A stretch of 63,098 bases of DNA, the filler included. It is 12 parts of 12 records of this genome, joined end to end, with 100 filler letters (N's around TTAATTAATTAA, not from the genome) between each part and the next. Parts side by side here need not be neighbours in the genome. Positions count along the whole stretch, not along the records: positions 49,284 to 53,151 come from SRR7504441_8799; positions 53,252 to 56,565 come from SRR7504441_8801; positions 56,666 to 59,938 come from SRR7504441_8805; 9 more parts are not named here. The stretch is one strand, 5' to 3'. The translations under genes were made by a program, and so were the position numbers. Positions 1,964-58,283 of the stretch are shown here, one piece after another. The notes beneath the pieces were generated by a model, which was not told the DNA's origin, made no database searches, and was given only the letters and a program-made list of their open reading frames with translations. Position 1 is the first letter of the stretch. Each line of letters begins with the position of its first letter.

Positions 1964-4900
1964 ATGTCTATTACCCGAGTAGTCTGGGCTCTGGCCCAGC
2001 TAGCTGTGCTGTCGAGCAGGCTGGCGGCGGGCGAGCTGTCTGCCCGGACGGTCCCGATGCAGGCCCCGTCCACCTTCACCGGTGCCCCGCCGCCCCCGCC
2101 ACCCCCAGCCGGCTGCTGCAACCCCGCCCCTGCTCACCTGGGTTACAGGTCAGTTCAACGACCCTGAGACCTCGACCGAGCATCCGCTGCTGCGGGTGCA
2201 CGTCAACGGCACGCTGTACAACATGCCCGCGTACGAGCCCGCCGGGATCGAGCCCAACCTGGACCAGACCGGCCCAGTGTCCGGGCAGCTGGTTCACCAC
2301 GTTGACTTGGCCACCGGCGAGCCGAGCAAGGGGTGCGAGAGCGCGGCCGGGCGGTACAACTACACCGAGAAGGTGGTGCTGGTGATCCGGGGCGATTGCC
2401 ACTTTGTGGCCAAGATCCGGAACATTCAGGCCGGCGGGGCGGCGGCGGTGATTGTTTACGACAACAAGCCGGAGGGCTGGGTGCACATGGCCTGGGACAA
2501 CACGATCCAGCCGGAGGTGCCGGCGGTGTTCATCCAGTACAACGAGGCGATGCACCTGCTGCACTACATGGGCATGGACAAAAACACCACAAACGGGTTT
2601 GAAGCCACGCTGCTCCCAGACAATGAGAACAGCCTGAGGTTCAGAGTCGACACGGTGGCCGCCCTCCCGAGCAACCCGGCGGTGCAGACAGTGACCGGCA
2701 CCGTCGAGGGCCGCCGCACCGTCGAGGGGCACATGGGCACTGATTACATGAAATACTCAGTCAGTGGCACCTTTGACACTCACACTGGCCGGCTTGTGGT
2801 GCAGCCTTTCCAGTGGATCACCAAGCCAGAGGACGATGATATATCCTGGATGGGGCTGGAGGGCACCGTGCTGCCGGAGGGGCACGCCATCCAGGGCAAG
2901 ATGACCCCTTACGAGGCTTACTTCCATATGCGGCTGGCCAACCCGTCTGACTGCCCGCCCAGCGTGGCCCAAGTGGCGCAGTGCCAGACAACCGGCGAGA
3001 ACGGCTACTGTGGGCAGGGCTGCCTCGAGGTGACGGACGAGAACGGGTACCGGGTGTTCAACGACGACAACTGCGAGTTCTCCCAGCCGCTAATGCATTA
3101 CTGCTCGATCAATGCACGAATCACCGGCGCTGAGTCCGACGACAGCACCTTCTCGTGCGAGGGAGAGCGTCTGGTGCTCAAGCCGCCGCTGGTGTCGCAG
3201 GCCAACGTCTGTCCGGCTGGCCAGTCCCAGAATTATCCATTTTTCACCGAGTGGCCGGTGGCTCGCTTCTTCCAGCCCTACGATTGGGACAAGATGACGG
3301 CCGGTGCGCCGGAGCACGGGAGCTTCTCAACCTACCTGTGCCGGACGGCCGACTGCGCCAACGCCACCGACAAGGAGTACGGCAAGGGCTGGCGGATGCG
3401 CGGCGGTTATGCTGACTCTGGCCCAACCAGACTGCCCAACTCGCAGTCAGTACTCGAGTACCACGTGCCGCACGTGAAGGCAGGCGCTGAGGTGCTGTTC
3501 ACGTACATCTCCAACGGCGAGCTCGGGTACGATTACCTCGAGTTCGAGGTGTGCCTCGAGGGGCGGGGCTGCACCACAGTTGAGAACTACAAGTACGACG
3601 ACGAGGCAAGCTGGCGGCGGGTAAAGGTGCGGCTGCAACAGGACGGAGAGTACTACCTCAAGTGGAAGTACATCAAGGATCAGGCGGTGGACGGCCGGAT
3701 GGATGAGGCCCGGCTGCTCCAGGTCGCTATCACTGGGTTCGACGACGATGCAGGCTGCAGGGCGTGCCCTGCAGATCATTGCTCCACAGGCAGAATCGAT
3801 GGATGCCAGAAGTGTTCGACTGGGACTAACTCCGCAGCGGGCTCACCCACCTGCACGGCCTGCCCCGGCGACCGGCCGATGAACTCTCACTACCAGATGT
3901 CCAACGAGCTCTCAAACTCTCCAACCGGGCAGAACTGTGCTGTGTTCTGTGACCCAGGGTACCAGGAGCATGGGTTCAACCAGGCCACCCTCCAGTGCAT
4001 CCCCCGACCGGACACCTGCCTGCTGCCCAAGGAGTCCTCATACGGCGGCAAGTTCGACCCACCGAGCATGAGCATGCTCAGGCAATGCTTCCAATTGAGG
4101 CACCCGATGCGCGACTACTGCGAGGACGCGCTCGAAACGCTCGAGGTCATCAATAAGATGAAGCAGCTGGACTCGCAGGTGCCGCTGCCCCGGCTGATCT
4201 GACCATTGCTGCAGAGCGCTTCTCGTGTCAAATTCTACCAAGATATTCACGAGCTGTATGAGACGCTCGAGGCTGCCAACAAGGCGGGCGACTGCACCAC
4301 AGTGTTCAAGACCGACTACGACTTCCATCAACGGATCCTCTCCCTGCTCCGTGCGACTCCGGACTCGAGCTACATCTACACCCCGCCGCTGTTCTATCAG
4401 AACCTGTTCCTGTACCTGCCAGTCCGCTTCAGGTACACTGGCAACCGTCAATCCGGTATCACAATCTTCATTGATTCGCTCACCGAGATGAGCCGCAAGT
4501 ATGGCAACCGTGGCTGGACACCGCACGTGCCAGTGATGGATTATGAAGTAGTCAAAGTCGACGGCGTCCCTGCCGGCCAAGCGTTTACTGCATTTGCTGA
4601 CTCACAGGTCGGCTACTCGCCAAATGCAAATGCTCGACTGGAGTTGGCTGTTCGTGGCGACTACCCTCAGCTCTGGGCGTGCTCCTTTAGCACCCGCAAC
4701 CTGGGCAAGTGCGGAGGAGACATATCAGATACTATGAAGCTGACGATCCGGAAAGATGGGAGCAGCCCGGAAATGGATGTGGTGTTCAAGTGGACTGTGA
4801 TGTACTTTGGAGAGGACTGCGACACTGCTGCTCCGTTGCACGAGACTGAGATGGATTCTGGGTCGTGCTCATACCACGAGCCTCACGACTGGCTCAACTG

Positions 4901-24096: not shown

Positions 24097-27000
24097 TTCC
24101 TGTCAGGATTTGAAGGTCATACGAACCAAGCTTTGGCTGGTGCAGCATTGAGCCAGCGAGCAGAGCATACTGGATTTGTGGCAAGCCTGGCAGGCAAGGA
24201 GGGCGAGGCGCTGCAGGCTGCAGTAGAAGCCCTGGTGCTTTCAGCAGTCAAGGACTCGGCTGGTGTGCGTGTTGATGCTCATACCCCGTTGATGGACAGT
24301 GGAGTCGACTCACTGGCTGCTACGGAGTTGCGGAATGAGCTTCAGCAGCAGTTTGGTGGAACGATCAAGCTGCCGAGTACACTGGTGTTCGACTACCCCA
24401 CAGCATCCGCAGTGGCCGAGTATGTCTGTGCACATCTTACTCGTCACCTTGGCGATCATAGAGATTATACCATATACATCAGTGTCGCTTCTGGAACGGG
24501 TTCATTGGGTGCTAGAGTGACCAGTATGTCGGCAATTGTGGCTGGATGCGACGCTATGCATGGAACTAGCATATGGGCCGCAATGATGTCTCAACACAGT
24601 ATGTTGACCACCTGCCCTCCAGGACGTAAGATGCAATCTTCCGGTAGGTTTCCTCTCGTTGGCTTCTTCATAGACAATTGCTGGAATGCTGCGGCCTCAC
24701 AGGAACCAGTTGATTTCGTCATGCCAAAGCACACACCTTTCGACAGCCATGTTCTGCATCTTCTATTGACCATTTCGACGGTCATTTCCGAGGCTTGCAC
24801 CACGGATGACTCCATGATGCACCTGGAAACAACGAGTTCTGAACAGACAGCAGTCTTCACAGCCGCTGATCCATCCGATTTTCTTGAGTACATCCCATCT
24901 TACCAACTGGCACACATTATACCTGCGACACTAAAGATTGCTAGACCGGCTGTCAATTTTGATGCGGCTTGCTCAGGGGGGTACTTGGCTCAATTTCATG
25001 GCTTTCAGTGTATTCAAACTGGCCAAAGCAATGTTGTGGTCGTTGCAGGTGTTTTTCTGCTATTAAAGTCCGACACCCTCGAAAAGCTGCATGATTTTGG
25101 AATCCTTTCCCCTAGCGGGTCCATGAGAGCTTTCTCTAGCGTTGCAGACGGACTTGTCTGCGGGGAAGCCTGTTGCGCTGTTATGCTTCAATCAAGTAGA
25201 GGGCTGGGAGGACTTGTTGACATGGCAGGCTGTGCAATTGCAACAAATAATCCATCCAGTCCATTTGGCTTTGCCGATGGATGTGCGATGGCTACTGCTA
25301 CCAGGCTGGCGCTTCAGCATGCAAACGTTCATCCAGATGAGGTACACGCTGTACATCTCCATGCAACTGGAAGCCAGGCTTCGGACGTTGCTGAAATGGC
25401 TGGTGTTCTGCCTGAGCTGGCCAGAGATTGCATCAATCGAACTACGATCTCGCTTATTGGTCATAAGGCAAACTTTGGTCACTCTGTAGCAGCATCTGGG
25501 ATCCTAGCCCTTGTCTCATTGGGGCTTGCTGCACAGCACCGCGTGATACCAACAGTTTTGCATGTGGCAAAAGCACCGCGTCCTCTTCGACAGGCTAAGA
25601 CGGTGTCATTACCTGTTGCATTAGCGCGAGAGCTTACCCTTAACCAGATAATCACTGATTTGAATGGCACCTCTATTAGTGGTGACAATGTAAATCTCGT
25701 TCTGTCACATCGCATGACCGTGGGTCCCAAGGAACTTGTGCATGACCACTGTCGCATCAACCTTGTCTTAAGGTCGGACAATCACGTGACTGGTCTTGTT
25801 GGTGCTGTACCAGATGGTACAGCAGCAGTTGGTGCTGTACCAGATGGTACAACAGCAGCAGCTGTGCCATCTTTATCAGCGGCAATCGACAGCAACGGAG
25901 CCTTATCAAGAGTGTCAGTCGCATGTGCCGTGTGCCAAGCAGCTGGTGGCGTGTGCAATCTGAATAAATTCTGGACGTTCCTGTGCTCAGCAAGAAGTGC
26001 TGTATCTACGAATCCACCAGTTCGGTGGGGCAAAGCAGTGGCAAGTACGGGCCCGTCCACGCTCGCTCTGGCTGGTGCATTCATTGACAACGTTTCTGTA
26101 AGCAAGGAGACGCCAACAACAGGTGCTTACGACATGAGGCCCCTCGATTTGCACCTTCTGTCTCTGATTGATGTCATGTCACAAGCTCTCGAAGTCAGCA
26201 AGATCTCTGCAGTCAGCTCAAGCAGTCAAAGTGACGATACAGGGATTTATACTGCAGCAGCAAGTTCTAAGTTCCTGCTGCCAACAGAAGCCTGTCACGT
26301 TTCCCATGTTGTTGCATCAGCACTCCATGTGCGTGGGCCACATTGCAACTTTGACTCGCTCTGTGCAAGCACGTATCTCGCCATGCATCGTGCAACTGAA
26401 ATGCTTAAAAGTCAAGCCTGCTCTGCGGCAGTAGTAGGTGGTGTTTTCTTGAAGCTCAAATGGGATCAAGCAGATGCACTGTATTTTTCTCAGACTGGAA
26501 CCATGAAACCATTTTCCTCAGATGCAAGTGGCATCGTTCAAGGTGAAGCGTGTGCTGCACTTGTCCTCCAGACTGGCAAGGATCGCAATCAACTTCTTTC
26601 CATCGCAGGGTCTGCGATTACCAGCAGCTCCACTGCTAACATGGTCGGAACACCAGATCCTCGAGCCATGCAGCTTGCCACACAGGCTGCTTTCGGTCGT
26701 GCTGGTGTATCTGGAGGAGATGTCTGTGCAGCTCATCTGCACGCTTGTGGGAGCCTTGTCTCTGACATGGCTGAGCTGCAAGCTGTGCTCCCAAGTCTGG
26801 AGGCTTGCCGACCTACCAACACCCCAGTCATCTTACCCAGCCACAAAGCAAACCTAGGTCATTCTGTCTATGCGGCTGGGATATTGGGAGTGCTCACAAT
26901 CATGCTGGTGTCATTGCACCGTACAGCTCCCCTTGTGATTAGAATTCAGAAACAGGTGAAACCACTTCGCGCAAATTCGCAGACGCTACTCCCTACAGCT

Positions 27001-44780: not shown

Positions 44781-47700
44781 TTGGTTTGTGTCTGCAGCCA
44801 AATTGCCACCCAGTCTGTGAGATTAAAACAACAAGAGAGCGAAGAGTTGGAAAAGCGAGAGGAACTTCGTGGCCTGCAACAGACTTCTGAGGAGCTTCGT
44901 GATGGAATTTATCAGGCAGAGTTGATGCATACTGCAATTTTGCAAGATTCGCAGCTTGTCCGTAATCAGAGTGATAGATCCGCGCACCAGGTATCTTCTG
45001 ACTAGACGTTCTGCTTGTGAATTCCACCTTGTCCTTGCCCTTCTGGCTACCTGGCTGCTTTGCTCCCCTCACTGAGTGTTGCTGTTGCAGTATGCTAATC
45101 AGCTCATGCAACAGCTAACAAGGCACAAACAAGCAGGGGAGGCAGCAGGTCAACGCATGCCACACTTTACAGCTCGCATAGATCAGCACGAGAGCGAGCT
45201 AATTTCCCTTCAAGCTGAAATACAACAACTCTGCAAATCTGTCTCTGACCACGATACAGAAATGACCAGAGTAAAGAGACATGCTGTGTGCATCAACGAA
45301 TCTTTGCAGCATGGCGAGAATGCGATGGCCCAGATGATTGAAAAATCTACGGAGGTCGAGCAATTGTATGCCAGCTGTTTAGCGGACACAGACGCCGCAC
45401 TAGTTGATGCTTGCCAGATTGACGGTCATAGGAATGCAATGGCAGAGGATGTGCTTGTGCTACAAAGCGAGCTCGAATTTTTGAAGGCAGAACTGAAAAA
45501 TGAACAACACCACAAAAATGTTCGCGTTCAGACGCATGAAAGCGAACTGGACGAAGTGCAAGATCTCAAGCTTGAAAGGGATACATTAATTGCAGAGAAG
45601 TGTGAATTGAAGGAGCAGGTTGCTCAAAGGAGTGAAGACTTGGCCAATGTGCAACACCATTTGACTGCAGCACATCAAGAGCGTTTTAGCGTCGCAGAGG
45701 ACTTGGCACTCTTTCTTGCAGAACTGGACACAATTAAAGACAGAGTTGACCAAGTATCTTCCGAACTTGGTGCAGGCCTTTCGCATAAGAGGCTACTTGC
45801 CGAACAGATGGCTGACGCAATCAAGCAAGTGGAGACTCAGAAAAGAGAGGATGACCATATCAAGCACCAGCTAGAGACACACACTTCTCAGCTGAATTTG
45901 CTTAGGTCTCAGATCCAGCATTGTCAAACAAAACACTCAGCAATGTGCCAAGATATAGACCTCATTGCCAGTGAAACTAGGGCTTCTCGGGAGGCTGCTA
46001 TGGACAGCAAGTCTGACGCAATGCACGAGAAGGACCGCCTGCGTCATGACATCCAAGAACTGAAAGAGACACTACAAGCTCTAGATCTTGACAAGTGTAC
46101 TGCTGAGACGCTGCTATCAGAGCTTACATTGCACATTTCCGAGGTGCAAAGTGAAGAGAGTCTGCTGATGGAACGGATTGAAGAGGATAAAGCCAGGCTG
46201 GTATCTGCTTCCATACAATTGGAAACCAAAAAGTCTGACGTCACTGTGCTAACAGCAGAGGCCCAAGTCCTCAAGGGCGAGCTCTCTGAGTTACAGTCAC
46301 AGATGATTGCATCAGCAAATGAGAATGCACAGCTGGTCCGAGAGAAACATGTGACACAAGAGCAAACCACTAGGTTGAAAGCTCGAATGTCAGATCTTCA
46401 AAAAATTGCCACAAAAGACTCGACACAACTAGAGAACCAACAGTTAGAGCTATCTCAAATTTTGAGCCAGAAGGCATTGTTGATGGCTGAAGTCCAGGGT
46501 TTCAATGCCGAGAGAAAGACCCTGCAGCAGGCGGTCGACGTTGCGAGACAAGAAGAAAAGCAGGCAGGTGACCAACTCGTCCATAATCGTGCAATAGCTG
46601 CTGAACTTGATCTCAACGTTAAGCAACTGCGTCAAGATCATGCCGATGCCAAGCTAGTTGCTGTCACAATTGAACAGATCAAGGCAGAGCATGAAGACTG
46701 TCTTGTCATGCAAGCAACTGCCAAGACTGACCTCAAGGCACTGTATGCTGAGAAAGAGGCTCTGCGTATAGAGCTTGCTGATCTGAAGGATCGAGTGAAG
46801 GACGAAAGCGAGAGCATAAGCACCAGTCGAGTCTCTCATGCGACATTGAAATCGAAGCTCCAGGAGCTGGAAGAACAGGCGTCTCGTCAGGAATCTCGCT
46901 GTGGCCACTTGATGCAGGAAGTCGAAAGTTTTAGCAAGCAGGAGCAGAGCAAGGCGACCGAAGTCGACACTTTAGCGAAACAAATTTCATCGTCGAGGCA
47001 GGAGATGCAAGACCTAGCCAATATCATGAAAGTTGAGGCTCAGCAATTGGCAACTGTGCGAGAGGAAAAGGAGGCCCTGCGCCAGCAAATCGGCGCGCTT
47101 AAGATGCAAGTGAGAGAAGGCGAGGAGAAGACTCGAATTGTGCAGGAAGAAGCGCAGGTCCGATACCAAGAGCACAGGTCCATGTTACTATTGGAGATTG
47201 CATTGCTGGAAAACGAGAAGGAAGAACAATTCAAAGCCATGAAAAGCGCCGCTGCGAAAGCAGATCTCCAATTGCAGCGCCAGCTCAAGATGTTACAGCA
47301 GACACAACTTGCTCTTACAGAGCGGCAAGCAGAGGGCGAGTCACGTGCAATTGCAATGAAACCGTCTACAGCAGAGACGCTCACCCTGGAACGTGTTTGC
47401 AGACAAATTGTAGATCTTGAGTGTCGATACCTGAGGATGCCCAAATGGTGTAGTGATACTAGCCAGCTGGAGCACGACTTACAGAAAGCCCTTCCGGCGT
47501 CAGAGATACAGCATAGACAAGCTCTAGTGCTCCTTGAGCACCTACTTGGTATCATGCTGCGACGTCATCTTGACTCTGTTGAAATACCTGCACATGATTC
47601 CCTCACTTTCTCGCCAATTACTGAGCTCCAATTTCACGATGAAATTCAGGAGCAATCAGCTGGATTAGACCATCTAGACGAGCAGACTGCGAAGCTGCTC

Positions 47701-49183
47701 CAGAGCCAGATATCGCTTACAGACAGCATTGCTGTATCTGACCTATCCCAATCGCAAGTAGGGGAGCTTGATGGCTCGGTTGCAGCATGGACAGCAGCCT
47801 TGGGCTTGATCAAAGATGCAGAAGGCCAGAGGATTACAATGCACCAGAAGCTCCGGACGCACCATGAAAAACTGCAGGCGGAGGTGTTGCGGTTGAGGAC
47901 TCAGCTTGGACACTACCAAACGCAAGTGGCTGCGGCACAGGCTGAATTGTTTGCCTTGAAGTCTAAGCAGACAAGCTTGGAGCTGGAATCGAACCCAGTC
48001 GTTGGGTCCATAGTTAGCCCTGCAAGGAGCGTATTGCTGGCTCGTAAAGAAGAGCTTGCAGCACTAGAAGCATCTGCAGAGAACTTCAGAGAGCAGGCTG
48101 AGGGAGAAAGAACCATGCTTTTGGGCCAGGTCAAGGAGCTGAAGATGACAAAAGCCAATTTAGAGAGTAGTGTTCAACAAACAGCCTCTACGTTGAGCGG
48201 AGTAAAGGCCGGCTTAGAATTAATGTGCACAAAAAAACAGCAGCTCGAAGAGAGCATTGCACACTTGCAGTTACAAAGTGTTGACACTCAAACACCAGGT
48301 ATAAATGAGACCGAATCGCAATTGCCATTACGGGAAGAAACAGAATCGAGAGCTTGTGATTTAGGCCAGATGCGACAGGCCAGGAAAGAAGCTGGAAAAC
48401 ATAAACAAGGGGAAGAACAAGAGTGTTATGGACTACAAATCCAGATCGAAAATGCATCCCGGCGCTTACAAGAAATCCAGACTGCAATCAGAGAGCAGGA
48501 GACACAGTTCGAAGCATGCGCTTCGGATTTGCGCGCCAAACGGGTCGAATACGCTCAGAGCCTGTTAGATTTGGAGCTGTTGGATTCTGAGAGGCGTAGC
48601 TTGCAACAGAAAGTTGAACTAGCCACAAGGCAAGTTAGACAGGCTGAAATGCAGCACTTTGAGACAGGCAGCTATATGGAGAGTGAGATGGCTTCAACAA
48701 GAAAGAGACTGCTTCAAACTGCATCTGAATTAGATTGCAAAACACTGGCCCTCAAGCAAGTCGACCACGAGACATCCGTTCGCAAACAAGAGCTCGAGGG
48801 CATTGAGAATCTAATCAGAGTGGGGAGAATCACCTTGGAACAGAATGCAGTAGATGCCTCCCAGGTGCAACGCAATAAAGCAACTGTGGCTGCTGTGGAG
48901 CATGAACTTGACATAAGACAGCAAGCTGTGACAGAGTTGAAGCAGATGGAATCCGTTGGCAGAACTCGGCTGCAGGAGTACTCTCAGGAGCGCGCCATGG
49001 TCCAAGCAAAATATATAAAAGCAGAGGGCGAGCTTCAGGCATCAATCAATAAGTTACACACGCATGAAGCTGAAGCCAAGCAGAAATGTGCTTTGCAGCA
49101 AGGGAAGCTGGTCGAAATGCAGAATCGTGTCAACGAAGAGCAACGAAACATGGCTACTATCATGGCAGAAATCGATCATATAA
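44781..49183 (+). CDS. Very long coiled-coil protein (fragment, both ends truncated)
   Basis: More than 1350 aa of E/Q/L/K heptad-rich sequence with no catalytic motif. Confidence 0.75.
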
Positions 49184-52897: not shown

Positions 52898-53484
52898 CCC
52901 GGCTGGTTGCTGTCCGAGAGGTTTCACAGATAAATGCGCAGCTAAATTATAGTAAGCGACTCGTAAGCGACTCGTGCGATCCAAACAAAGCATGAATGGG
53001 GCTCGGGTTGCGCTTCCATTCTAGCTACACTCGTCTGTACGGTACCTGATTTATTAGTCGAATTTCATATTAATTAAGCACTTACACACGGATGTATACC
53101 ATCGCTAGCAAGTGAGTAGGCATGTTTATTGAGTCTTCATGTCTACCCGACNNNNNNNNNNNNNNNNNNNNNNNNNNNNNNNNNNNNNNNNNNNNTTAAT
53201 TAATTAANNNNNNNNNNNNNNNNNNNNNNNNNNNNNNNNNNNNNNNNNNNNCCATTTTCCGGACCAGACCGTATGCTGACGACCAGACCGGGACCAGACC
53301 GAGCCCACCCGCGGCCGACGGAGGGCTCGGCAGGGCCGGGGCGCGGCTGGGCTGGTGCCGGATGGGCCGCCGCACCACCCCTAGCCAGCTCCACCTCCCC
53401 GGAACCCACGTTCCGCCGCCTTCTCCATCTCCGCTTGAGAGCACCGCCATCGTCGCTTTCTCAACCCCGCTTATTTTTACTTTG

Positions 53485-54519
53485 ATGGCGCAGGCGAACA
53501 CCACCAACACAGACGACAGGGCGCCGCTCACGCCGCAGATGACGCCGGGCTCGCGCGCCCCTGCCGAGTACGCGACCACCCCGGAGGTGCTCAACCAGAC
53601 CCGCGCTACGGTGGCTCCGCCATTGGCGCCGGACGATTTTGGCGGCGTGGTGACGCGGTTGGACGCTCTGCTGAACGTGGAGAGCTTGCTCGGCAAGCGC
53701 AAGTTCGAGGCCGAATCGTTCGCATCCAGGGCGATGGCCAGCTTGGGTAAGCACCAGCTCATCCCGCCAGGCGGGGTCGAGAGCCCAGGTGCGGGTGCGA
53801 ACACCGTGGTGGTGTACAACCGGCCCACGGTGGGCGACGAGCGGTTCTTCCTGGATCCGAGGAGCTGGAGCGCCTCCGGGATGCGCGGGTTCAGCGTGCC
53901 CAGGTGCAGATTCGACGAGATGGTCAGGCGTGGCTACATCCCGCTCAGCATCTCGCACATCGGCCCACACCAGGGGAGCCTGCCGGACCCGGTGCCACAG
54001 CCGGACATTGATCGGTGCGAGGAGCAAGCTGCGGCCCAAGCGGCCAGCCCAGTGGCTGCTGGACAGCTTCCGGGCCGAGTGACCGTCCCCCGGAAGCTGC
54101 CCAGCTGCCAGGAGGGCATTGCTGGGACCGCTGCCGAGAAAGTCGTGGACTGGTTCGAGAATCAAGTGACGCGAGATGGGCGCGTCTACAGCCCGATGAG
54201 GCTATGGAGCGAACGCGCGCGGAAAGCTGGGCGCGGCACGACCGATGCGCCGATTGAGCCCTTTGACGCGGCAGCCGATGGGGACCAATTCACGAAGCGC
54301 TGCAAGATGTACATCTGGATCTGCACGAAGATCAATGCCGGCGAGTATGCCAACCCTGCCGAGATCAAGTACACCTACGCTGAGTTGAGACGGGACCAGA
54401 TTAAAAGTGTAACTCCAGCAACCAAGCCGGAGGAGATACTGGCGTTGAGCGATAAGTCAATTTGGGCGTGGGCGTCGCACCTTGCCAAAGCCAAATTGGG
54501 CCACCCTAATCCACCATAA
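53485..54519 (+). CDS. Accessory ORF of the YR element, possible GCR1_C-like DNA-binding C-terminus
   Basis: Intronless 344-aa ORF, NLS-like GKRK, Trp-rich VVDWFEN..PMRLWS..QFTKRCKMY pattern (pattern recognition only). Confidence 0.5.
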   Translation: MAQANTTNTDDRAPLTPQMTPGSRAPAEYATTPEVLNQTRATVAPPLAPDDFGGVVTRLDALLNVESLLGKRKFEAESFASRAMASLGKHQLIPPGGVESPGAGANTVVVYNRPTVGDERFFLDPRSWSASGMRGFSVPRCRFDEMVRRGYIPLSISHIGPHQGSLPDPVPQPDIDRCEEQAAAQAASPVAAGQLPGRVTVPRKLPSCQEGIAGTAAEKVVDWFENQVTRDGRVYSPMRLWSERARKAGRGTTDAPIEPFDAAADGDQFTKRCKMYIWICTKINAGEYANPAEIKYTYAELRRDQIKSVTPATKPEEILALSDKSIWAWASHLAKAKLGHPNPP

Positions 54520-54680
54520 TCACATTCTCAATTCCAACACATGAACTGCAATATGAAATCTAAAGAGATCAAATTGATTTAATTAACTCGAGGCATCCAA
54601 CCAACTCAAATTAACTCATCGATCTAACAGCCCACTATAAAGGCATCTTCGCACTGAAAGATCGGTCATGAAATGAGCGA

Positions 54681-56410
54681 TCACATGAGTGATCGCCCGT
54701 CAAAGCTCGGGGTTGTCGAGGGCTTCCAGGGCCAAAGTCCCCAGATTGGATCTGCAATCGTCCGGCCGTTCGGTCCTTCCGTCAGCCTTCCTCGGTCGGC
54801 GCAACCTGAGACCGTGCGAGACAGGTCAGCACGATGAAAATTAGCAATGTTCACCTTCAGCATGGTAATTAGCGCACTCGTCTGTCTTCTTCCAACGGCC
54901 AATGTTCTTGACATCTAGGATCGAGGCCCCGCACCGTGCAGCCCACTGGCACCCAGTACGGCGCAATGTGTGCGGTGTGCAGCCATCACCGTGTACAAGC
55001 TGATCATTTTCAGGCCGTGTTTTATCAATGTGTGCAGGAGTATAAAGCTTGGTCACTTGAAAGAGCCTGGTCAGATTACCTTCCCATCGCTCCTTGGAAC
55101 GAGCCTTCCCTTTGCCATTCTCCAATAAAATTGCTTCACTTGATGAAGTAATACGAATGAAAATTGGGCCTCGTTTGATCCCAGAAATTCTCAACCAAAG
55201 AAAGAACCACGTGACTGGACAATAGCGAGCGTTTACATAATTCCTGTGCACTCGTAAGCGATATACCTTGTCCGGTTTGTTCCGGAGTGTCTTTGATCTG
55301 GTTTTCCAGTTCCGTAAGCCAATCTCAAAGAACTTGGGCAGGCCATCGGGGTCCCAGAATTGCCTATCCGGCAGCTTGCAATCTTCCAATAGCGGGCAAA
55401 AGGATGTGAGTAGGCAAGGCCGAGCCATGAGAACGAGGCTGAGAAGAAACATAGCCCAAACCTGAACTGAATACTGTTCACACCACATGCTCATATGAAA
55501 TGTCGCATCGAACAACTTCGGGAGGTCTTGGCACATATCAAGGGCCTTGGTGGATTTGTTGCCATCGTCCGCCTCCCACTTTTTAGCGAGTTGCATCAGG
55601 CCAGGGTTGTCATCACAGGGGGTTTTGACATGAAACTCTCTACACGTGGCACTCATCCGACTCAAATATGAACGAATTGCACCACCTTTGTGTGTAATAG
55701 GAAGATTTGTGGTTGGGTGCAAAGGGCCATGATAGTCACAACGCATCGCCTTAAGCCAGCCCTGGAATAGAATGGCAGGGGGGGCCCTGCATGATACATT
55801 CAAGGCCCTAGCTTGGGTAATTTGTTCTTGTGATATCGGCTCGTGAGTTATAACTAGGCGCAGGTCTGTTACTAGCCATTGTGTCCAGGCAGCTCCTTGC
55901 GACCCAGAGCGGTGCCTAGCACCCCAAGCATCAGCCTAATCCGCCTAGCGCGCACCTCTCGTAGCAGTAGCGCTCGAAGAGGCTCCACCCGCGGATGCGT
56001 TGATCGTGAGAGTCGATCGGCGCCTGTTCCTGCGCGTCCTGTACGGCTTCTTCGAGGTGCTGGTCGCCTTGAGCATCGGCCCGAGCCTGATCCGCGAAGC
56101 CAATGACCCGGCCCCAGCGATGCAACACGCTGTCCGGCTCGTGCGGCTTGTACTGGGGCGAACAGATGTGCCAAACCACCTTATCCGGGAGGCCGCCGGG
56201 CTGCGGCACCACCTCCTTGCGGCGGAACAGCATCAGGGCCTTGCCCCAGCTCACGCCAATCTGGGCGGGGGCCCGCCTCCGGTCCTCGTCGTCCTCGAAC
56301 GGGTCGAACCCGGTCAGCTTGCGGCGCCTGCAAGCGCGGGGCGAGTCGTCGTCCTCGCCTGGGGCCGGGTCGCACTCCATGGACGGCTGGTCCACCCGCT
56401 CGGCCGACAT
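54681..56410 (-). CDS. Tyrosine recombinase (Crypton-type); exons 56410-55956, 55915-54855, 54805-54681
   Basis: Catalytic set R (LMARP), K (NWKT), HxxR (HTLRR), W (GRW), Y (ANYH). GT-AG introns of 40 and 49 nt fuse three ORFs in frame. Confidence 0.85.
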
Positions 56411-56859
56411 CGCCTGCCGCCCGGCAATCACCCGGGCGAGATGCAGCCAGCCAGCCGCCGTTGCCTGCAGACTGGTCCGGTCCGGCAGGCCGGACCGTCC
56501 GGTCCACCCCCCCTGGATCACTGTCGTGATCCACTGTACTGTGTACTATATAGAGGCCTTTTCCGNNNNNNNNNNNNNNNNNNNNNNNNNNNNNNNNNNN
56601 NNNNNNNNNTTAATTAATTAANNNNNNNNNNNNNNNNNNNNNNNNNNNNNNNNNNNNNNNNNNNNAGTTCTCGTGATCGCCGTACAGCGGGGGCCGACTC
56701 AGAAACTGCTCGGCCGGCGCTTGCGGCCCCAGACCGGCCCAGAGCATCGCCCCCGTCAGATTGCTTGATCTACATGTATCGCCCGCCGCCCCTCACCCCT
56801 CAAGTGTTGCCATGATCAGCCTCGGGAGCAGGCACGCGTACGTTAGAGCAAAGGCGGCG

Positions 56860-58283
56860 ATGGCAATGCGCTGCTCAGGGTTGTACTTGACCTTCGCGCT
56901 CTGCTGGGCAGGATGCGCGGCTCAGCTGGTGGTTGTGGCCCTGGGACCGTACGGTGGGGTGCTGGGCGGCAGCACGACTGGCTTTCTGCTCGCCACCCAG
57001 AGGGTGCCTAGCTTCGTTGCGCTGGATGCTGGCACCTTGGTGACCGGGGTGATGGCCATGCTTGGCCGTTACCAGGAATGCCCACAGAGCTGGTTTCCTG
57101 CCGGGCCCGCCGCAGCGGCTGATAGGGCGCTGGCACTGGTCACCAGCAGGCTGGAGGGCGCCGTGCTTACCCACGCCCACTTGGACCACACAGCGGGGCT
57201 GGTCATGGCGTCACCCGAGCTGCGTGGCAAGCGGGTGGTCGGGAGCAACGCCACACTCAGCGCAGTCCAGAAGAACCTGTTCAACAACGAGGTGTGGCCA
57301 GATCTGGCTTTCCCCTCTCCGACGGCCATCCTGCCCGCCTCACTGGCCGCAGTGCTGTACGAGCAATTCACGCTGGGTGGCGGCAACAGCTCCAGGTTCG
57401 GCCAGGCCGGGCTATCTGTGCTGTTCGGATGGCCGGTCTCGCATACCGAAGCCACTGCCGCGTATCTGGTCGGGACGGGGCTAGACGGCCAGACTATTCT
57501 GTTCTTTGGTGAGTGCCCTGCCGAGCCTGCGTGAGGCGGGCAACAGGTGACAACGGGCCGGGCGGGACGCTGGGCGGGGGCTCGGAGGAGGCCTGGCTGG
57601 CTCAGATGGGCACCGTGTTTGAGGAGACGTGCAGTGCACTCGCGGCTGCAGGGGGGACGCTTGTTGCTGTGTTTCTTGAGGTCTCTTACCCCCTTGGTCG
57701 AAGCCCACACTCGCTGTTCGGGCACCTCACGCCGGATCTTGCCACTGCCGGGCTCCGGAGGGCATGCTCAGCCTGCGGTTCAACGCTGGAGAACACGCAC
57801 ATGGTGCTGATCCATCGCAAGCCTGTGTTTGGAAGCACCAGCTCCTTTGATGAGGCTGGGAAGGCTGCAATTGAGCAGGCGATGTCCAAGGGCCAGTCAG
57901 CCGCCGAGTTGATTCTAGAGCAGTTCAAGGCCACGGTGTCAGGGCCCGGCAGACCGACGTGTTTAAATTCGAATTTTGCGGCGGATTATCTCCATGCCCC
58001 TGAACAAGGGCAAATCATGGAACTGTCAGCGGCTCCGGGAGGCGATCTGGCGCCGTGCCCATCGCAGAGCGGCTCATCGCCAGGAGGAGGTTCCGATACT
58101 GAGTACAAAATGGCGGTCGTGCTGCTGAGCTGCTTTTTATTTCTCACGACAATTGTGGCGGTTGTGCTCGGTGTGCAGAACTGGAGGCAACAAAAGAAGA
58201 TGTATCAGCTCATTTCAGATGCAAAGGGCAATGGGATGGACCTTGGGGCTCCCTTACTTGAAGAGAGCTTGATGAGTTCTTGA
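56860..58283 (+). CDS. Class II (metallo-beta-lactamase fold) cyclic-nucleotide phosphodiesterase with signal peptide and C-terminal TM; intron 57509-57546
   Basis: LDAGT, THAHLDH..GLV, LFNNEVWP, FFGD, LFGHLTP, IHRKP; TM MAVVLLSCFLFLTTIVAVVLGV. Confidence 0.85.

Follow-up and report, generated by a model that had tools for sequence, protein, structure and literature searches.

The stretch of DNA analysed here (63,098 nucleotides with filler included, hereafter the window) contains a 3.3-kb contig, SRR7504441_8801, on which the broken reading frame of a putative tyrosine recombinase faces a second, uninterrupted gene. This arrangement raises the question of whether the contig is a mobile element in its own right, and of which class, or a part of something else, such as a host gene pair, a plasmid-like circle or a larger virus-like element. 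Analysis of the contig and its relatives suggests that it is probably a complete or nearly complete copy of a small Crypton-type DNA element with two genes. The mobility of this element, its passage through a circle, its termini and the role of its second gene are what we infer, and they are worded conditionally below.

The window consists of 12 contigs of 3.0–9.9 kb with a GC content of 0.48–0.65, joined by spacers of the form N44-TTAATTAATTAA-N44, and therefore contigs that are neighbours in the window are not to be taken as physically linked. Ordinary eukaryote-looking genes are present on the other contigs (RCC1-BTB, ankyrin, a frame with ketoacyl-synthase (KS) and acyl-carrier-protein (ACP) stretches of a polyketide synthase, homoserine dehydrogenase and GH2), and the contig itself probably stems from the nucleus of a marine protist with a GC-rich genome. 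Three marine, seawater or estuary metagenome runs contain 5–6% of the sampled words of the contig.

The recombinase, its gene and its family

A Pfam scan of the four open reading frame (ORF) pieces of the contig returned no match, and the recombinase shows no hit to PF00589 at E<=1. A word-indexed homologue search brought up no relatives of the recombinase, and neither did single-sequence phmmer find a match in the PDB. However, a profile built from 47 relatives matches 17 Cre/Tre sequences in the PDB (best E 8.7e-9), and its alignment places the HxxR, GRW and Y motifs of the family on the H, R, W and Y of Cre. The corresponding residues of Cre we take to be H289/R292, W315 and Y324. This profile-to-PDB match, together with the fold evidence, makes up for the missing Pfam assignment.

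Structure prediction, which had been proposed as a check, came out in favour of a Cre-like fold. The AlphaFold2 model calculated with the 47-sequence alignment has a pLDDT of 87.2 and a pTM of 0.83, and a model calculated from the single sequence was useless (pLDDT 32.8). The top Foldseek match of the former is Cre (3crx_A, E 7.3e-9), followed by XerH, Tn1549 Int and lambda Int, and superposition on Tre/Cre by VIA-align gives a Z score of 19.4 and a root-mean-square deviation of 3.6 A for 271 residues spread over both domains. The catalytic set is full, consisting of R317, K356, H467-x-x-R470, W493 and Y502 in full-length numbering (R172, K211, H322, R325, W348 and Y357 in the numbering of the exon-2 ORF). 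R317, the first catalytic arginine (R-I), and K356 were placed by invariant columns of the family alignment, and the H, R, W and Y by the alignment to Cre. When 150 representatives of the family were taken, R-K-H-R-[W/H]-Y was found kept in 75 of the 91 that cover all six columns; nine of the 16 exceptions have a Y instead of the first His. Of the 105 representatives that cover the column of the catalytic Tyr, 104 have retained it. By its sequence and predicted structure, the window protein is thus a genuine, catalytically complete tyrosine recombinase with a Cre-like two-domain fold.

The recombinase gene lies on the minus strand and is predicted to consist of three exons, with its start codon (ATG) at 56410, its stop codon (TGA) at 54683–54681 and a product of 546 amino acids (aa) (Table 1). 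Splicing is needed to read it, because the exons lie in different frames and a stop codon is present inside intron 1. The model is supported beyond this frame arithmetic by the 47-member family profile, which is colinear across all three pieces (exon 1, positions 15–114, E 6e-12; exon 2, 129–427, E 9e-107; exon 3, 431–458, E 0.012). Across intron 1 the profile match ends at position 114 and resumes at 129, and the related locus L004 is broken at the same profile position (115|114). Full-length relatives have the same N-terminal block and a DPIxxxWxWKP tail. Of the 34 related loci, 16 match exon 1 in tblastn (E<=1e-3), and the exon-3 tail has matches in relatives such as L027 (1e-8) and L007 (6e-8). 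After splicing, the catalytic Tyr and the DPI motif are separated by 21 residues, against 18 in the relative P0001. The original prediction of a recombinase assembled from three ORF pieces through 40- and 49-nucleotide (nt) introns, with a full R-K-HxxR-W-Y set and a DPIWGLWPWKP tail, is therefore borne out by GT..AG borders, colinearity with the family profile, the placed catalytic residues and a tail that is conserved in relatives.

The same prediction had called these introns host-style. This is plausible, and it leans on one gene of a neighbouring contig in the window: the ORFs of a gene for a class-II cAMP phosphodiesterase (PDEase_II) are best joined by a 38-nt GTGAGT..CAG gap at 57510–57547 (+), with PDEase_II matches on either side of it (upstream ORF, E 1.3e-16; downstream ORF, 0.017). 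From this single example, introns of about 40 nt would be plausible for the host. The base composition of the recombinase gene is uneven, as the GC content at third codon positions (GC3) falls from ~0.9 in exon 1 to ~0.5 in exon 2 within one gene; it is ~0.85 in the convergent gene, and the recombinase of the related locus L008 shows a milder dip.

An exhaustive HMMER search places the recombinase in a large family. It returned 349 representatives of clusters made at 50% identity with E<=1e-3, of which 188 have E<=1e-10 and 22 have E<=1e-30, and the best identity is 47%. Nearly all of these relatives are unnamed proteins on marine metagenome contigs of 1–6 kb, and some lie on contigs of 112 and 336 kb. 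Organism names attach only to transcripts of Pedinella sp. CCMP2098 (MMETSP entries) and to a protein of Prymnesium polylepis. Pedinella is a stramenopile. No relatives were found in IMG/VR or in prokaryote genomes. Among 78 relatives scanned against Pfam, PF00589 gave 15 sub-threshold matches and one above the cut-off (P0063, 30.2 bits), and neither these relatives nor the window recombinase matched DUF3504 (PF12012), GCR1_C (PF12550) or other families linked to Cryptons. The protein Atlas gives as leads for the recombinase DUF3504 clusters (0.97) and a core-binding-domain cluster of Oomycota (0.97). In a 30-row maximum-likelihood tree the window protein falls in an 11-row clade (support 96/97) together with the Pedinella and Prymnesium representatives, and the branching order inside this clade lacks resolution.

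The partner gene, the related loci and the contig ends

The second gene, here called ORF2, is an intronless frame of 344 aa that converges on the recombinase, as had been predicted, its stop codon lying 161 nt from that of the recombinase. Scans of metagenomes with a 10-sequence alignment of the recombinase family as query found 34 related loci (denoted by L and a number), and tblastn and profile searches found relatives of ORF2 in L003 (350 aa), L008 (407 aa), L019 (partial), L029/L030 (decayed) and L012, the last being distant (E 0.0026 before its inclusion in the profile). All of them lie downstream of the recombinase, on the opposite strand and convergent to it, which makes six of the 18 loci whose sequence extends 650 nt or more downstream of the recombinase; no relative of ORF2 is present in the other 12. 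Since L029 and L030 are one locus in two records, five of the cases are independent. The loci that bear ORF2 are spread over three recombinase clades (supports 96/97, 100/99 and 100/100), and the pairing of the two genes is therefore old rather than a one-off. L003 is a contig of 3196 bp that consists of just a recombinase and a relative of ORF2. By its conservation, ORF2 is evidently a real conserved gene.

What ORF2 does is less readily read from its relatives. Its conserved core has the pattern (I/V)VxxFExxV...YSPxRLW...FxxRCxxY and is rich in aromatic residues. No kinship of ORF2 to the recombinase was detected (hhalign probability 2%). A word-indexed search with the ORF2 sequence brought up no relatives, and the same search with the ORF2 alignment brought up a single cluster, P0194, of the L008 type. 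In the protein Atlas, ORF2 lies nearest to GCR1_C-bearing fungal clusters and unnamed oomycete clusters (0.81–0.84). The GCR1_C lead itself (0.84, recognition 1411) is below the trust levels of the tool, and hmmscan at E<=10 found no match to PF12550 (GCR1_C) in five members of the ORF2 family. The likeness of ORF2 to GCR1_C is thus a weak lead.

The surroundings of the related loci bear directly on the class of the element. The two genes occupy 2765 of the 3314 bp of the contig and leave no room for reverse transcriptase (RT) or RNase H, neither of which was matched by Pfam, so that the predicted absence of both from the contig stands. Linkage to such genes or to virus-like genes was looked for in the flanks of the relatives. 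No domain of an RT, RNase H, capsid, polymerase, DDE, C48 or methyltransferase (MT) type was found in 150 ORFs, out of 184 with a length of 130 aa or more, which come from 26 of the 34 related loci after removal of near-duplicates. The flanking genes are ordinary cell genes, such as Pyr_redox, SAM, DEAD helicase, P-type ATPase and HSF, and they differ among the loci with identifiable neighbours (L001, L008, L026 and L029). In L008, a cellular oxidoreductase gene lies 1.15 kb upstream of the recombinase.

Interrupted recombinase frames are common among the relatives, and the splits recur at profile positions ~115–142, 296/297 and ~378–380. The 296/297 split is present in L006, L007, L011, L014, L015, L017, L018, L027, L031 and L032, where the gap measures 65–83 nt in eight loci and ~205 nt in L031/L032, and the 65–83-nt gaps of L006, L007, L011, L015 and L027 have GT..AG borders. 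Position 296/297 therefore appears to be a conserved intron position, which is missing from the window gene. The retention of introns argues for spread at the DNA level and not through an RNA intermediate.

Deleted and decayed copies are also present. L022–L025 (for example L023:679-1361) carry the same internally deleted recombinase, in which profile positions 20–98 are joined directly to 377–459, and which is possibly a non-autonomous derivative. L029:5441-6405, the same locus as L030:3510-4474, contains a decayed recombinase and a decayed ORF2 amid HSF, P-type ATPase and hydroxylase/sulfotransferase genes, and is apparently a copy that died long ago in a diatom-like genome of lower GC content. 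Relatives of this kind are the usual litter of a transposon family and, together with the differing flanking genes, lend indirect support to a putative mobility.

Near both ends of the contig lie words similar to the 9-nt word GGACCAGAC (Table 1). Within one mismatch, this word has 26 matches in the window against 16.0 ± 3.6 expected, and eight of the 26 are in this contig: three in the left cluster (+), four in the right cluster (-) and one internal. Three words of the right cluster lie upstream of the recombinase ATG and one (56385) lies inside exon 1. Such words could be protein-binding sites at the ends of the element or a shared promoter motif. In L003, ATATATAGG is present at a place similar to that of the TATATAG word of the window contig. 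A marine metagenome piece of 172 nt resembles 53254–53366 (six differing letters and one gap, ~94%) and diverges inward; it may represent another context of the element end, or a relative, and is too little for interpretation.

Table 1. Coordinates of the candidate element and its features, in positions of the window
Feature	Coordinates	Strand	Description
Candidate element (whole contig)	53252..56565	.	3314 bp, GC 0.588; N/TTAATTAATTAA spacer on each side
Left subterminal cluster	53261..53299	+	three GGACCAGAC-like words (53261, 53280, 53291); upstream of the partner gene
Partner gene ORF2	53485..54519	+	344 aa, intronless, GC3 ~0.85; conserved core at ~residues 196–301
Spacer between convergent stop codons	54520..54680	.	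161 nt, AT-rich
Recombinase exon 3	54681..54805	-	conserved C-terminal tail DPIWGLWPWKP and TGA stop; profile positions 431–458
Intron 2	54806..54854	-	49 nt, GT..AG, CTGAC 19 nt before AG
Recombinase exon 2	54855..55915	-	core-binding and catalytic domains with R317, K356, H467, R470, W493, Y502; GC3 ~0.5
Intron 1	55916..55955	-	40 nt, GT..AG, CTGAT upstream of AG; in-frame stop, frame shift
Recombinase exon 1	55956..56410	-	N-terminal region conserved in the family; GC3 ~0.9; profile positions 15–114
Right cluster	56385..56505	-	four GGACC[A/G]G[A/T/C]C words (56385, 56470, 56475, 56497); inverted relative to the left cluster
Candidate TATA box (TATATAG word)	56546..56552	-	~135 nt upstream of the recombinase ATG; putative role

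Relation to known elements and rival explanations

In the sense of Goodwin 2003 and Kojima and Jurka 2011, the contig bears one mark of a Crypton, in that it encodes a tyrosine recombinase and neither RT nor RNase H. Passages of the latter paper describe Cryptons as having no terminal inverted repeats (TIRs) or long repeats, just terminal direct repeats of 4–6 bp (PMC3212892), and a facultative second gene for a DDE transposase, a C48 peptidase or a helix-turn-helix (HTH) protein is mentioned in parts of a 2026 study (PMC13465315).

CryptonS, known from oomycetes and a diatom, would be the likeliest home of the window element, a comparison made by description only. As far as the relevant passages of PMC3212892 describe them, CryptonS elements are eukaryotic DNA elements with a tyrosine recombinase as their sole enzyme, which lacks GCR1_C and has a conserved C-terminal region; their termini are direct repeats of 5–6 bp, mostly TATGG, and some carry an extra gene for a C48 peptidase. 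The window element shares with them the sole recombinase without GCR1_C and, with some, the presence of a second gene. Its family shares with them stramenopile hosts (Pedinella here) and also has a conserved C-terminal tail, which may correspond to the C-terminal region of CryptonS. However, ORF2 is a conserved protein that belongs to no known family rather than a C48 peptidase, TATGG is absent from the window contig ends, and the window family reaches a haptophyte, unlike CryptonS as described in these passages (PMC3212892).

The other systems are further removed. CryptonF (fungi, oomycetes and Chlamydomonas) is likewise a recombinase-driven DNA element that may carry introns. In CryptonF, according to passages of PMC3212892, GCR1_C is fused to the recombinase, whereas by Pfam it is present neither in the window recombinase nor in its 78 relatives nor in ORF2, and ORF2, if it is GCR1_C-like at all, is a separate convergent gene. 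Animal Cryptons of the CryptonA/DUF3504 group, Glomhoppers and domesticated genes of the ZMYM/KCTD1 type are Cre-like eukaryotic recombinases as well, but their PF12012 finds no match in the window protein or the 78 relatives. Glomhoppers are single-ORF elements in the portions of the 2026 study that deal with them (PMC13465315). Cre of phage P1, Xer and lambda Int share with the window recombinase the two-domain fold and R-K-HxxR-W-Y. Compared with Cre, the window protein has ~15% identity, is longer by ~150 residues at the N-terminus and has a conserved tail at the C-terminus, and it differs from all three in being encoded by a eukaryotic gene with introns; a lox-like site was not identified. 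DIRS, Ngaro, PAT and VIPER also encode a tyrosine recombinase, and a circular intermediate is presumed for them. The window element differs from these in having no RT, RNase H or methyltransferase and no split or inverted terminal repeats, and in retaining introns. A search of the literature on Cryptons with haptophyte or stramenopile found no description of this gene pair.

It is possible that the two genes are a domesticated or long-resident single-copy host gene pair, derived from an old Crypton-like element and serving the host, for example in programmed rearrangement or chromosome resolution. We consider this unlikely. Introns of host size, the GC3 of 0.85–0.9 in exon 1 and ORF2, which resembles that of other host genes in the window, transcripts in Pedinella (MMETSP entries), the single copy in the window and intron positions common to relatives would all suit such a pair. 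However, domesticated Crypton recombinases (DUF3504) lose the catalytic tetrad, as passages of Kojima and Jurka 2011 (PMC3212892) report, while all six catalytic residues are kept here and in 75 of the 91 relatives. The family is also patchily distributed, some of its copies are decayed or internally deleted, and the flanking genes are different at L001, L008, L026 and L029. The contig might also be part of something larger, for example a polinton-like virus or virophage, a giant-virus insert or a DIRS/Ngaro-type retroelement, whose other genes would then be situated outside the contig. The contig is short and ends only 155–233 nt beyond the start codons, and tyrosine recombinases occur in polinton-like viruses of algae according to parts of PMC12220804. 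This origin is improbable, given the absence of relatives from IMG/VR and of RT, RNase H, MT, capsid or polymerase genes from the 150 ORFs around relatives. BFVD gives only generic phage integrases (best E 1.5e-6, weaker than Cre), the oxidoreductase gene in L008 is cellular, and the introns argue against an RNA intermediate.

The small size of the contig might instead reflect an extrachromosomal, plasmid-like replicon of 3.3 kb, or an excised circle of the element, assembled as a contig of its own. The presence of only two genes, the same content of L003 and the TTTTCCG word common to both ends agree with this idea, and so do the seven full-length (562-aa) members of a Prymnesium-like cluster, whose longest contigs measure 3278–5819 bp, six of the seven at 3278–3557 bp. 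But short contigs are the rule in these metagenomes, the contig has no replication gene, and relatives are found beside cellular genes on contigs as long as 336 kb. Moreover, the ends share a word of 7 nt only and not the long terminal overlap that assemblers leave, so that a free circle as the source of this contig carries only a small chance. It is less credible still that the gene is a decaying pseudogene or an assembly chimera, with frameshifting indels posing as introns and a chimeric join as the source of the GC3 jump. The fall from ~0.9 to ~0.5 lies just at the boundary of exons 1 and 2, and the contig was found in no RNA run, a blank that weighs neither way. Both gaps, however, have GT..AG borders and a branch-like CTRAY word, and their removal restores colinearity with the profile at the loss of no conserved residue. 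The exons are free of stops with the catalytic residues intact, the L008 recombinase has a similar, milder dip in GC3, and the genes on other window contigs range from 0.45 to 0.83.

A Crypton-type DNA element thus remains the probable explanation, and the Crypton-like reading of the original prediction is supported by a recombinase with introns, a conserved convergent partner, the lack of RT and RNase H, and cellular flanks in relatives. Its further claim of a DNA-binding partner holds in so far as the partner is a separate, convergent and conserved gene; DNA binding itself is conjectural, as Pfam, PHROGs and the PDB gave nothing notable for ORF2, the core of the protein lacks a basic character (pI 5.5–10) and GCR1_C is a weak lead. 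These properties of ORF2 count against our explanation, as do several others. The window contains a single copy of the candidate element and no similar DNA elsewhere, and the host-size introns together with the high GC3 of exon 1 and ORF2 fit a long-resident or domesticated gene too. The pieces from public runs are contigs of 151–358 nt only and contain no joints; five of them differ from the contig by 0–2 letters, the remainder being short or poorer matches. The contig ends give no alignment in either orientation, that is, no TIR or long terminal repeat (LTR), and local end-versus-end alignment scores are at shuffle level for both the window contig and L003. The 7-nt direct word TTTTCCG at both extreme ends is weak, since chance gives such a word in 2.5% of pairs of random 25-mers, and 4 of the 34 related loci have one at least as long. 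TATGG is not terminal, as TATGG/CCATA occurs only internally (contig positions 952 and 1263), though contig ends need not be element ends; in L003, TATGG lies 17 nt from one end only. The enrichment of GGACCAGAC is partly circular and its statistic generous, because the word was chosen from this contig, and the word could also be a shared promoter motif. Finally, in L001 (1977–2471, -) and L002 (926–1456, -), which are among the loci with the closest recombinases, a SAM-domain ORF occupies the convergent downstream place of ORF2. This ORF could be either a gene of the host or an accessory gene that was swapped in, and it means that the ORF2 partner is not universal.

Two other contigs of the window contain long frames. 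The contig at 24097–28842 (+) is entirely a single open frame of 1582 aa with an ACP and three ketoacyl-synthase stretches and a GC3 of only 0.45, and is part of a very large modular polyketide synthase. At 45076–49182 (+), a low-GC contig (0.48) has an open frame of 1369 aa with no Pfam match at E<=1e-5.

Proposed mechanism and meaning

The element would work as follows. Its first gene encodes a Cre-like recombinase, extended N-terminally by a family-specific region and C-terminally by a conserved tail, which by analogy with Cre and the Crypton model would cut and rejoin DNA via a 3'-phosphotyrosyl intermediate at Y502. The element would be excised as a circle, and it would integrate where a short sequence at one of its ends recombines with a nearly identical target in the genome. 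For CryptonF-1_cRei, the sections of PMC9977147 devoted to it describe insertion and clean excision, with a short target that corresponds to an element terminus. No RNA intermediate would be involved, and for this reason the gene could keep its spliceosomal introns. The second gene would be a co-inherited accessory protein that joins the recombinase in choosing sites, in synapsis or in setting directionality, and it might bind the GGACCAGAC-like words that are clustered in inverted orientation at both ends.

A bolder view, possible but doubtful, is that the contig represents the first described member of an old two-gene tyrosine-recombinase lineage of marine chromist algae (haptophytes, dictyochophytes and probably diatoms). 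ORF2 would then provide in trans what fungal Cryptons have as a DNA-binding domain fused to the recombinase, and the unit of ~3.3 kb would either pass through a free circular stage or be maintained in that form.

Among the eukaryotic DNA transposons, no class is less well understood than the Cryptons, and we know of no role established for their accessory proteins. Crypton activity has been directly seen only in Chlamydomonas, according to passages of PMC9977147. The family described here is large and catalytically intact, and as Pfam does not recognise it, it is missed in the annotation of marine protist genomes and metagenome-assembled genomes. What sets it apart from known Cryptons is a partner gene of an undescribed family, its reach into a haptophyte and the lack of membership in a Pfam family. 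If the element is a plain CryptonS, the gain is smaller: the host range would widen to include haptophyte-like algae, and a second gene would have been newly noticed. A compact algal Cre-like enzyme with its own cofactor is of possible interest for tool builders. For the biology of the family, a partner gene conserved across deep recombinase clades offers a handle on how site choice or direction is controlled in eukaryotic tyrosine-recombinase elements.

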